A stretch of 34,631 nt of DNA from Minisyncoccia bacterium (GTDB taxonomy: Bacteria > Patescibacteriota > Minisyncoccia > Phycocordibacterales > CAIZLB01): assembly GCA_041752275.1 (NCBI GenBank), contig JBGSHK010000019.1, positions 1-34,631 of the forward strand. Reading direction: 5' to 3'. Position 1 is the first letter of the stretch. Each line of letters begins with the position of its first letter. Made by a program: the position numbers and the translations under genes. Below are positions 3,591-3,675 of the stretch, piece by piece. The notes beneath the pieces were generated by a model, which saw only the letters and a list, made by a program, of their open reading frames with translations, had not been told where the DNA came from and did not search any database.

Positions 3591-3675
3591 GGACTTGAAA
3601 AGCTTTGCTATATTTTTGAGGAGCTATGCTCCGAGAAAATAGCAAAGGTATACTGAAGTCGTAGGCTTCAAGTCC
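3591..3675 (+). ncRNA. Unclassified tRNA-linked structured element, copy 1 (RNA or ssDNA hairpin element)
   Basis: Nested stems GGACTT/AAGTCC, CTTTGCTAT/ATAGCAAAG, TTTT-GA/GA-GAAAA, GAGC/GCTC and TGAAGTC-GTA-GGCTTCA. Aligns with copy 2 at 24896-24982 with compensatory changes. Confidence 0.65.

Follow-up and report, generated by a model that had tools for sequence, protein, structure and literature searches.

Positions 3591 to 3675 of contig JBGSHK010000019.1 from a Minisyncoccia bacterium had been proposed to represent a new family of structured elements located behind tRNA genes. From the analysis of the entire contig (34,631 nt, the window) and of related genomes, it appeared probable that this stretch is the core of a small, gene-less and non-autonomous insertion element, which is specific to Patescibacteria, lands 3' of tRNA and tmRNA genes, and would rely on a folded single strand and on an enzyme encoded at an unlinked position. 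Among relatives, the element is an insertion/deletion polymorphism bounded by two direct copies of the tRNA, with the host tRNA remaining intact. New copies stack next to the tRNA, the arms of the element match its own tRNA, and some copies carry genes. Of the two alternatives offered in the original prediction, a structured non-coding RNA or a mobile element, the latter is backed by precise filled and empty sites.

The sequence at 3591-3675 of the forward strand (copy 1) was confirmed. It starts 71 nt 3' of tRNA-Asp, separated from this gene by a hairpin flanked by A/T and by a GC hairpin. A second copy was also found as described, on the reverse strand at 24896-24982 and 59 nt 3' of tRNA-Leu(TAA). 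The order of tRNA, terminator-like hairpin, GC hairpin and element holds in both copies, which show 81% column identity in a pairwise alignment. Both copies fold into a three-way junction consisting of P1 with 7 bp, a composite P2 hairpin, and P3 with 5-6 bp and a GUA loop, with P3 abutting P1 directly. Minimum free energies of the RNAs were -31.4 kcal/mol for copy 1 (z = -4.9) and -26.4 kcal/mol for copy 2 (z = -3.9), and in neither case was the value equalled by any of 200 shuffled sequences. A covariance model derived from the two copies scored them with 102-104 bits, while the next match in the window reached 17 bits. Metagenome DNA contigs from two runs of one study match the region of copy 1 with 0 differences, over 3472-4000 for the sample that is the probable source and over 3481-3685 for another sample.

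Further members were searched in one genome per species (185,579 species) with the pattern GAAARR-N9-ATTTTTGAR-N(9-18)-ARAAAAT-N(8-14)-CTG-N5-GTA. The scan revealed 53 loci, all of them in metagenome-assembled genomes (MAGs) of Patescibacteria, belonging to Parcubacteria/Paceibacterota lineages and to MAGs labelled Saccharibacteria. Within these loci, 64 good copies were detected by the covariance model. When loci identified by synteny were included, 71 copies were available, 61 of which are located 35-218 nt 3' of a tRNA or tmRNA gene on the same strand, an arrangement for which a test of enrichment had been suggested; the remaining copies are mostly found at locus edges or 3' of cargo genes. 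As hosts, tRNAs for Ala, Arg, Asn, Asp, Gln, Glu, Gly, Ile, Leu, Lys, Met, Phe, Pro, Ser, Thr, Trp, and Val as well as tmRNA were identified. The family is wider than the search pattern, since a GC-rich variant 3' of tRNA-Ser(GCT) on a metagenome contig from JGI (locus L075, 570-745) has a P2 quite unlike that of other members. The order of modules is kept in this variant, with a palindromic trailer, the anti-acceptor GCGGAGAGG, the hairpin H0, an anti-T arm, P2, TGTACCG, P3 with GTA, and a sense arm.

The element does not belong to an Rfam family, as had been suspected. At the gathering threshold nothing besides tRNAs was detected in the window, and in E-value mode only chance-level matches were obtained, the best one on the element being a plant microRNA model with 23 bits compared to a gathering threshold of 80. 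No match to the element was present in phage and plasmid collections. A looser scan of viral contigs yielded five loci, none of them with a covariance-model match or a tRNA, and these are regarded as chance hits. A published description of the element was not found in literature searches. The hammerhead ribozyme was considered and rejected. It needs CUGANGA, GAAA, a UH site and junction strands of about 7, 4, and 1 nt in cyclic order; the junction strands of the element measure about 5, 8, and 0 nt in the opposite cyclic order, there is no Rfam match, and CUGA is missing from copy 2, which reads ACUGGUCC.

Secondary structure is strongly conserved within the family. In a MAFFT alignment of 59 copies, 93.8% of the cells are paired compared to 74.6% in shuffled alignments, and 23 of 30 pairs vary on both sides, bearing out the claim that stems differ in sequence and still pair. 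P3 is paired in 99.7% of the cells with all four Watson-Crick types represented, and sliding the partners by one to three columns reduces pairing to 38-62%. For the opposed GA dinucleotides in P2, the proposed GA/AG internal-loop register performed slightly better than the alternative one (93.8% versus 92.6% paired), and in this register the T29-A49 pair is replaced by C-G and G-C in some copies. G:T combinations occupy 80 cells and A:C combinations 20, which identifies the tRNA-sense strand as the folding strand, as predicted. The fold is therefore under selection, and on the tRNA-sense strand. The motifs TTTTTGAR, ARAAAAT, CTG, and GTA were set by the search pattern, so that their invariance is partly built in for rows derived from it. 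Copies detected by the model or by synteny alone keep a GAAAAG-type J12 run, GTRTACTG and the GTA loop (GTT in one case), and the interior of P2 varies. With its C-G or T-A closing pair, the GTA loop conforms to the GNA type of triloop. Loops of this type confer particular stability on hairpins of DNA, which is a weak hint at a DNA strand.

Comparison of the copies with their host genes showed that the closing helix P1 is made of tRNA sequence. The T-loop and the 3' strand of the T-stem of the neighbouring tRNA are copied in it twice, in antisense by the 5' strand of the helix and in sense by the 3' strand. The right side of copy 1, ...GAAG-TCGTAGGCTTCAAGTCCTATTCAC, repeats GAAGGTCGTGGGTTCAAGTCCCATTCAC of tRNA-Asp in sense orientation and in worn form, and the left side GTGA-TGGACTTGAA is antisense to TTCAAGTCCCATTCAC; the right side of copy 2 retains CGAGTCC only. 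Since both strands copy the host tRNA, P1 is not a free-standing conserved helix. The original prediction had also listed conserved unpaired residues. The residues of the core junction and the loop are indeed kept, but GAA and AGTCC belong to the T-loop and differ between host tRNAs, as seen at tRNA-Met (GGAATCGAA...CGATTCC), and are thus not specific for the element. Over 61 copies, the sense arm scored 14.3 against the tail of its own tRNA and 6.0 against foreign tails, with the own tRNA among the top 5% for 48 copies; the corresponding values for the antisense arm are 10.4 and 6.3, with 42 of the 61 copies in the top 5%. In addition, an antisense copy of the own acceptor of at least 7 nt lies immediately 5' of H0 in 14 of 57 copies, compared to 0.5% of the comparisons with foreign acceptors.

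Related loci revealed sites with no, one or two elements. At the tRNA-Leu/EngB site, where the EngB proteins of the relatives compared are 85-100% identical, L009 and L010 are empty and the EngB ATG follows tRNA-Leu after about 6 nt. One element is present in the window and in L006, and two are present in L008; the EngB proteins of L006 and L008 are identical in spite of this difference. The tRNA-proximal element of L008 terminates in a perfect copy of TCGAGTCCCGCCTGAGGCACA, and the distal one in a decayed tRNA copy followed by the -10-like TGATATAAT in front of EngB. A second set of sites is provided by tRNA-Met and tRNA-Asp, both of which are empty in L016. In L012, L014, L025, and L030, an element with arms matching tRNA-Met is inserted between these two genes. 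Read base by base, the flank in L012 and L014 is TTGAGACAATG..., the same sequence as after the empty tRNA-Met of the window. The tRNA-Asp site is filled in the window and empty in L016 and L012, and in L019 and L025 an element with a variant P2 is found 3' of tRNA-Asp. Genome GCA_043760135.1 is empty at tRNA-Leu, tRNA-Met and tRNA-Asp, and harbors copies at tmRNA, tRNA-Ile and tRNA-Trp.

The core moves among tRNA species. In no more than 10 of 49 cases did a core share its tRNA with the nearest neighbour in sequence, and cores at different tRNAs are up to 92-93% identical. Gene-carrying and multiple arrangements were also detected. In L047, tRNA-Glu is followed by a mini-element, an open reading frame (ORF) for an ACP-like protein of 104 amino acids (aa), and a second core with a perfect tRNA-Glu copy. 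Two genes are bracketed by two cores in L062, a core with tmRNA-matched arms is located 1.7 kb 3' of tmRNA in L027, and L074 contains a tandem array of units. H0 and core of L029 (tRNA-Glu) and L074 (tRNA-Ser) are 100% identical with differing antisense arms. This pair was not accepted as proof for rewriting of the arms, because both copies are at contig ends and the right arm of L029 is of the Ser type, so that an assembly chimera or a rearrangement is possible.

A direct repeat of the 3' part of a tRNA flanking an insert is reminiscent of attL and attR of genomic islands, and the elements could be inert scars, that is, minimal attL/attR remnants (as in cis-mobilizable elements, CIME) of islands integrated by tyrosine or serine integrases, the structure being leftover att symmetry. 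The tRNA-Asp site is a hotspot for varied gene islands in relatives, which would be in keeping with this idea. Neutral decay is not compatible, however, with an 85-nt core that is 80-95% identical across many genera and contains 23 covarying pairs; antisense copies of tRNA ends are foreign to att scars, and no integrase adjoins the copies (150 neighbouring ORFs). We therefore regard inert scars as highly improbable. The islands themselves occupy 4515-6000 in L012, 3110-6000 in L014, and 4725-6000 in L016, corresponding to about 3520-3738 of the window, and comprise a 168-aa ORF with DUF3800, ORFs of 295, 162, and 173 aa, and ORFs of 181 and 173 aa. No second copy of tRNA-Asp was detected in these islands, and no core was found at their ends with the models R1 and R2, which again does not fit a scar; the site 3' of tRNA-Asp looks like a hotspot of another kind.

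The organization of a complete unit is best described with copy 1. The extent originally assigned to it included a real core, but the unit is larger, reaching upstream to 3557 and downstream, with the sense copy, to 3682, followed by a decayed trailer. The host gene tRNA-Asp(GTC), recognized by ARAGORN and Rfam, is located at 3445-3519 on the forward strand, as are all parts mentioned in the following. Its T-loop-to-3'-end segment, TTCAAGTCCCATTCACCGCGC (3499-3519), constitutes the left direct copy ('a b'). The trailer with an A/T-flanked, palindromic, terminator-like hairpin (3520-3556) follows, with the arms AAAAATAAAATACCC (3523-3537) and GGGTGTTTTATTTTT (3542-3556) and the loop GTAA in DNA folds. 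This hairpin, which was not called by a strict terminator scan since it has too few G-C pairs, forms the apex of a longer fold-back reaching into acceptor and anti-acceptor, and the same palindromic trailer architecture recurs in other copies. The anti-acceptor GCGTGGTGA (3557-3565) is antisense to the acceptor 3' strand TCACCGCGC of tRNA-Asp at 8 of 9 positions. It is followed by the constant hairpin H0, GGAGGCAA-TAGT-TTGCCTCC (3566-3585), which is identical in the tRNA-Asp elements of L019 and L025. The anti-T arm GTGATGGACTTGAA (3586-3599), antisense to TTCAAGTCC(C)AT(T)CAC of tRNA-Asp, contains the P1 5' strand (3591-3597); in the DNA fold of copy 1, GTGA pairs with TCAC across H0. The conserved core, as defined by folds and alignments, extends from 3600 to 3666. 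The J12 run AAAAG (3598-3602) shares two bases with the end of the anti-T arm. P2 (3603-3647) combines TTTTT/AAAAA pairing with the tandem GA/AG internal loop formed by G3618 A3619 and G3633 A3634. J23, an GGTATACTG-type junction, occupies 3648-3655, and the P3 5' strand with the GTA triloop 3656-3663 (P3 in full, 3656-3668). The sense arm TTCAAGTCCTATTCAC (3667-3682), the right direct copy, matches tRNA-Asp in 15 of 16 positions, covering T-loop, T-stem 3' strand and the first acceptor bases, and includes the P1 3' strand (3669-3675). A decayed remnant of the displaced tRNA 3' end and of the old trailer was recognized at 3683-3706, where ATTAAGAATTTCCC (3693-3706) is moderately similar to ATTAAGAAAATATCCC of the empty site in L016.

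Copy 2 is located on the reverse strand, 3' of tRNA-Cys and of its host tRNA-Leu(TAA) (25042-25125, detected by ARAGORN). The left modules (24974-25009) consist of H0, GAAAGTGCC-AAAT-GGCACTTTC (24988-25009), and the anti-T arm GTGCGGGGCTCGAA (24974-24987), which is antisense to TTCGAGTCCCGC of tRNA-Leu at 11 of 12 positions. P1, P2 and P3, supported by fold and covariance model, lie within 24896-24982.

In general, the parts are arranged in the order tRNA end, palindromic trailer/terminator, anti-acceptor, H0, anti-T arm, core, and sense copy, and in many copies the intergenic part comprises a perfect-palindrome trailer/terminator, the anti-acceptor of the own tRNA, H0, and the anti-T arm. The layout may be written as a b t / t' b' (H0) a' / core / a b, so that the 3' region of the local tRNA occurs first in direct, then in inverted and again in direct orientation; the constant modules are placed within it at tRNA coordinates 65/66 (H0) and 55/56 (core). 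The core contains P2 with the TTTTT-GA/GA-AAAAA motif, the GTRTACTG junction, and P3 with the GTA triloop. When folded, the arms reconstitute the acceptor-plus-T-stem helix of the host tRNA in which H0 substitutes for the tRNA body. Identity with the tRNA begins at T54-C56, which is the P3/P1 junction, and the sense copy runs from C56/G57 to a variable point past the 3' end; compared with the end of the tRNA, the identical block stops between -2 and +13 nt, and at +30 in tandem arrays. Direct repeats starting in the T-loop are 16-32 nt long, and up to 52 nt in tandem arrays.

A tRNA end with its trailer, a mirror image and a direct repeat, with palindromes that are perfect over about 20-30 nt per arm, a variable right edge, and a left edge at a T-loop microhomology could also be produced passively, by fold-back and switch-back template switching during replication at tRNA T-arm and terminator hairpins, with no dedicated machinery involved. 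This explanation is given a slight chance at best, since it accounts neither for constant H0 and core modules at fixed tRNA coordinates nor for conservation of sequence and structure throughout the phylum.

If an insertion element is assumed, a tentative mechanism can be outlined. The element would act as a folded single strand, preferably DNA of the tRNA-sense strand, although RNA is possible. Paired with each other, antisense and sense arms would imitate the target as a duplex between T-loop and 3' end, and an enzyme with its gene at another place in the genome would find the C56 boundary displayed by the conserved junction. Copy-and-paste insertion with repair synthesis would duplicate the target from the T-loop to the entry point, giving a left edge that is fixed at C56/G57 and a right edge that is variable. 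For such a model, rewriting of the antisense arms or their adaptation through 3-5 substitutions has to be assumed. The host range agrees with copy-and-paste and target duplication, and so does a sequence at the left end of the older element that faintly repeats the start of EngB (AACATCACC compared to AACATGACC). The order of the parts is also obtained by conservative site-specific recombination with a carried tRNA end, as in attC or CTX-like systems.

A number of observations weigh against an insertion element or against one of the two routes. Duplication by itself does not explain antisense arms that match the host, and site-specific recombination with an element-borne tRNA end cannot change the tRNA without leaving a chimeric or broken tRNA gene. 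The terminators following the two tRNA copies are alike in L019 and unlike in L025 and L038. The latter cases are more easily reconciled with a terminator carried by the element than with simple duplication. Each pair of filled and empty sites can also be read as a precise deletion between direct repeats, and neither an excised form nor an empty-site junction was present in the metagenome DNA contigs of the source study. The co-occurrence with recombinases or HUH transposases that had been envisaged was not found locally: among the 150 nearest ORFs of at least 150 aa, no recombinase, transposase or reverse-transcriptase family had two or more members, and neither the ORFs closest to the two copies nor the larger unassigned ones in the window revealed a recombinase family. 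Finally, family members of other organisms are contained in wastewater metatranscriptome contigs, one example being a contig of 201 nt with a word depth of 46, and an RNA role for the element is therefore possible; these contigs come without direction or ends. RNA runs checked for the organism of the window contained conserved tRNA words only. Pseudouridine synthase was the most common family among the neighbours (6 of 150 ORFs). This was not counted as an enrichment, because four of the six members of the matching BLAST cluster are at tRNA-Leu(GAG) loci, which points to synteny held in common, the loci being equated solely by the identity of their tRNA. A difference in CCA between live tRNA and displaced copy was dropped as a sign of an RNA intermediate because of a mixed pattern.

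The metatranscriptome contigs lead to the question of whether the element could have a function as RNA, either as a small RNA or in cis within the tRNA precursor. An acceptor/T-stem minihelix with H0 as the body would then mimic the neighbouring tRNA and serve as processing signal, decoy or insulator, and the patchy distribution could reflect gain and loss of a useful module. Strong conservation of structure with compensatory changes on the transcribed-sense strand, acceptor-like and T-stem-like helices rebuilt from each copy's own tRNA, and an orientation that is always that of the tRNA are all expected on these grounds. Yet a terminator-like hairpin separates tRNA and element in many copies and leaves no space for a promoter, and a clear anti-acceptor in just 14 of 57 copies indicates that mimicry of the tRNA is not general. 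Furthermore, stacked, tandem and cargo-bearing versions at nearly any tRNA or tmRNA are typical of mobile DNA, and the RNA contigs, lacking direction and ends, could stem from carry-over of DNA. A small RNA is thus considered unlikely, and an insertion element remains the preferred explanation.

Several known systems share features with such an element. Like attC sites in integron cassette arrays and the attP(+) hairpin of CTX-phi used by XerCD, it is a strand-specific, folded single-strand site with structure conserved more than sequence, and the folded site is located at the distal end of each inserted unit. As in integrons, new units enter by a fixed site and push older ones downstream, units are empty or carry genes, and the enzyme is not part of the unit; arrays of this kind are represented by the stacked copies of L008, the tandem copies of L074, and the gene-carrying copies of L047 and L062. 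In contrast to attC, R''/R' boxes (RYYYAAC/GTTRRRY) are not contained in the element, the paired ends of which, GGAnTCGAA...TTCGAnTCC, vary with the host tRNA. The arms are individual target copies of 12-20 nt instead of a universal 7-bp core, and the three-way junction is conserved, whereas the loop of attC is variable. No intI or attI adjoins the element in the ORF sets given above, and the T-loop of any tRNA or tmRNA gene is used for entry instead of attI.

Islands and prophages in tRNA and tmRNA genes (T-loop sublocation) and CIME resemble the element in their tRNA 3' target, in keeping the tRNA intact, and in a displaced copy of the 3' end marking the far end, the direct repeat being present in both. 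The element differs by its size of 0.12-0.2 kb, by the lack of a detectable integrase, by an antisense target copy and by a covarying core, which occurs 3' of nearly every tRNA species, a range that the carried attP of an island cannot attain. Neither an integrase nor homologous ends were detected among neighbouring ORFs and, with models R1 and R2, on the tRNA-Asp islands. IS200/IS605 and REP/RAYT also have strand-specific hairpins, in which a segment at the 5' foot pairs both with the unit's 3' end and with the flank. However, guide-like arms of 12-20 nt compare to 4-5 nt in IS200/IS605, the target is duplicated, unlike in IS200/IS605, and no Y1 HUH transposase was found nearby (no family with at least two members among the neighbouring ORFs). 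In target-primed retrotransposition of the R2/L1 type, as for short and long interspersed elements (SINE/LINE), one edge of the duplication is fixed and the other variable; SINE are likewise non-autonomous and linked to a highly transcribed RNA gene. In contrast to these, the element has no poly-A and no internal promoter, no reverse transcriptase was detected among the neighbouring ORFs, terminator-like hairpins are located upstream, and some cargo is antisense (L027). The element is also not one of the miniature inverted-repeat transposable elements, since its inverted arms are target-derived and specific to each copy, and its duplication, about 16 to more than 30 nt, is not fixed in length.

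A more far-reaching variant, which can be put forward only tentatively, is a cassette system of the Patescibacteria's own. A protein-less unit of about 120 nt, with target-complementary arms on a three-way-junction scaffold, would choose the T-loop of any tRNA or tmRNA gene, and the arms would be rewritten with each insertion. In this variant, the scaffold would either be a ribozyme itself or serve as handle for an unlinked recombinase, with single-stranded DNA or RNA as the guide, and the element would reprogram itself, resembling an integron for which every tRNA gene is an attI.

At the tRNA-Leu site, insertion may have consequences for expression of the neighbouring gene. In the empty loci, L009 (9950-10040) and L010 (9914-10004), EngB/YihA starts about 6 nt past the tRNA-Leu discriminator, leaving no space for a promoter or a ribosome-binding site in front of the gene. 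In this arrangement, transcription of EngB apparently proceeds from the tRNA operon, and tRNA processing would free a near-leaderless mRNA. In the window, a -10-like TAAAAT (24882-24887, reverse strand) lies in what is left of the displaced tRNA end, which has decayed, 6 nt upstream of the ATG of EngB (24873-24875); in its place, relatives carry TGATAAAAT or TGATATAAT. TAAAAT may act as a promoter. The sequence GTAGTAAA 3' of both window copies was considered and set aside; in copy 2 it is most simply a -10-like box, and in copy 1 it is attributed to chance.

Some other observations were made in the window and in related loci. A third tRNA, with a CAT anticodon and an odd D-arm region, is located at 3229-3300 on the forward strand; it was detected by the Rfam tRNA model with 43 bits and missed by ARAGORN. 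As it is conserved 5' of tRNA-Met in L012, L014, and L016, it is probably a real initiator or Ile2-type tRNA. In L019 (770-850), a chimeric pseudo-tRNA with an unrelated 5' part (GGGGCTGTAGCTCAGTTTGG...) and an exact tRNA-Asp 3' half, the acceptor strands of which are unpaired, adjoins tRNA-Asn and lies 5' of the variant-P2 element. Inserts of 20-40 nt, CCCAAGAGCACTTCTATTTTGCTAACGCAAAATTGGGCGCG in L014 (3100-3150) and CTAAAGAAAAATTGGCGCAC in L019 (1006-1030), sit precisely at the 3' terminus of a tRNA-Asp copy, where they restore GCGC(A); judged by their sequences, they may constitute a different, tiny insertion at tRNA ends. Threonyl-tRNA synthetase of L009 (1885-4188, reverse strand) is called with 767 aa including an N-terminal PemK/MazF toxin domain (PF02452), and the enzyme of the window (31031-32806) has 591 aa without this domain; the longer product is either a fusion or the result of two merged genes. 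A 956-aa protein encoded at 20730-23600 on the forward strand has weak matches to TraG/TrwB coupling proteins and HerA/FtsK-type ATPases. Its homologues in relatives are called DUF8128, with synteny kept beside the ribosomal-protein/SecY cluster.

If the element is mobile, it would combine the absence of genes, a conserved folded core, and antisense and sense copies of a tRNA, features not known together, and it would have colonised nearly every tRNA species and tmRNA throughout the phylum with single-copy essential genes left undamaged. The matching of arms and targets could reveal a new kind of site choice, by base pairing or by target-templated synthesis, and would bear on programmable DNA insertion. 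The element accounts for much of the unannotated intergenic DNA 3' of tRNA genes in these tiny genomes, and the family merits a covariance model for annotation. Its insertions also appear to rewire neighbouring genes, as suggested by EngB, which would have passed from readout of a tRNA operon to a promoter-like box of its own.

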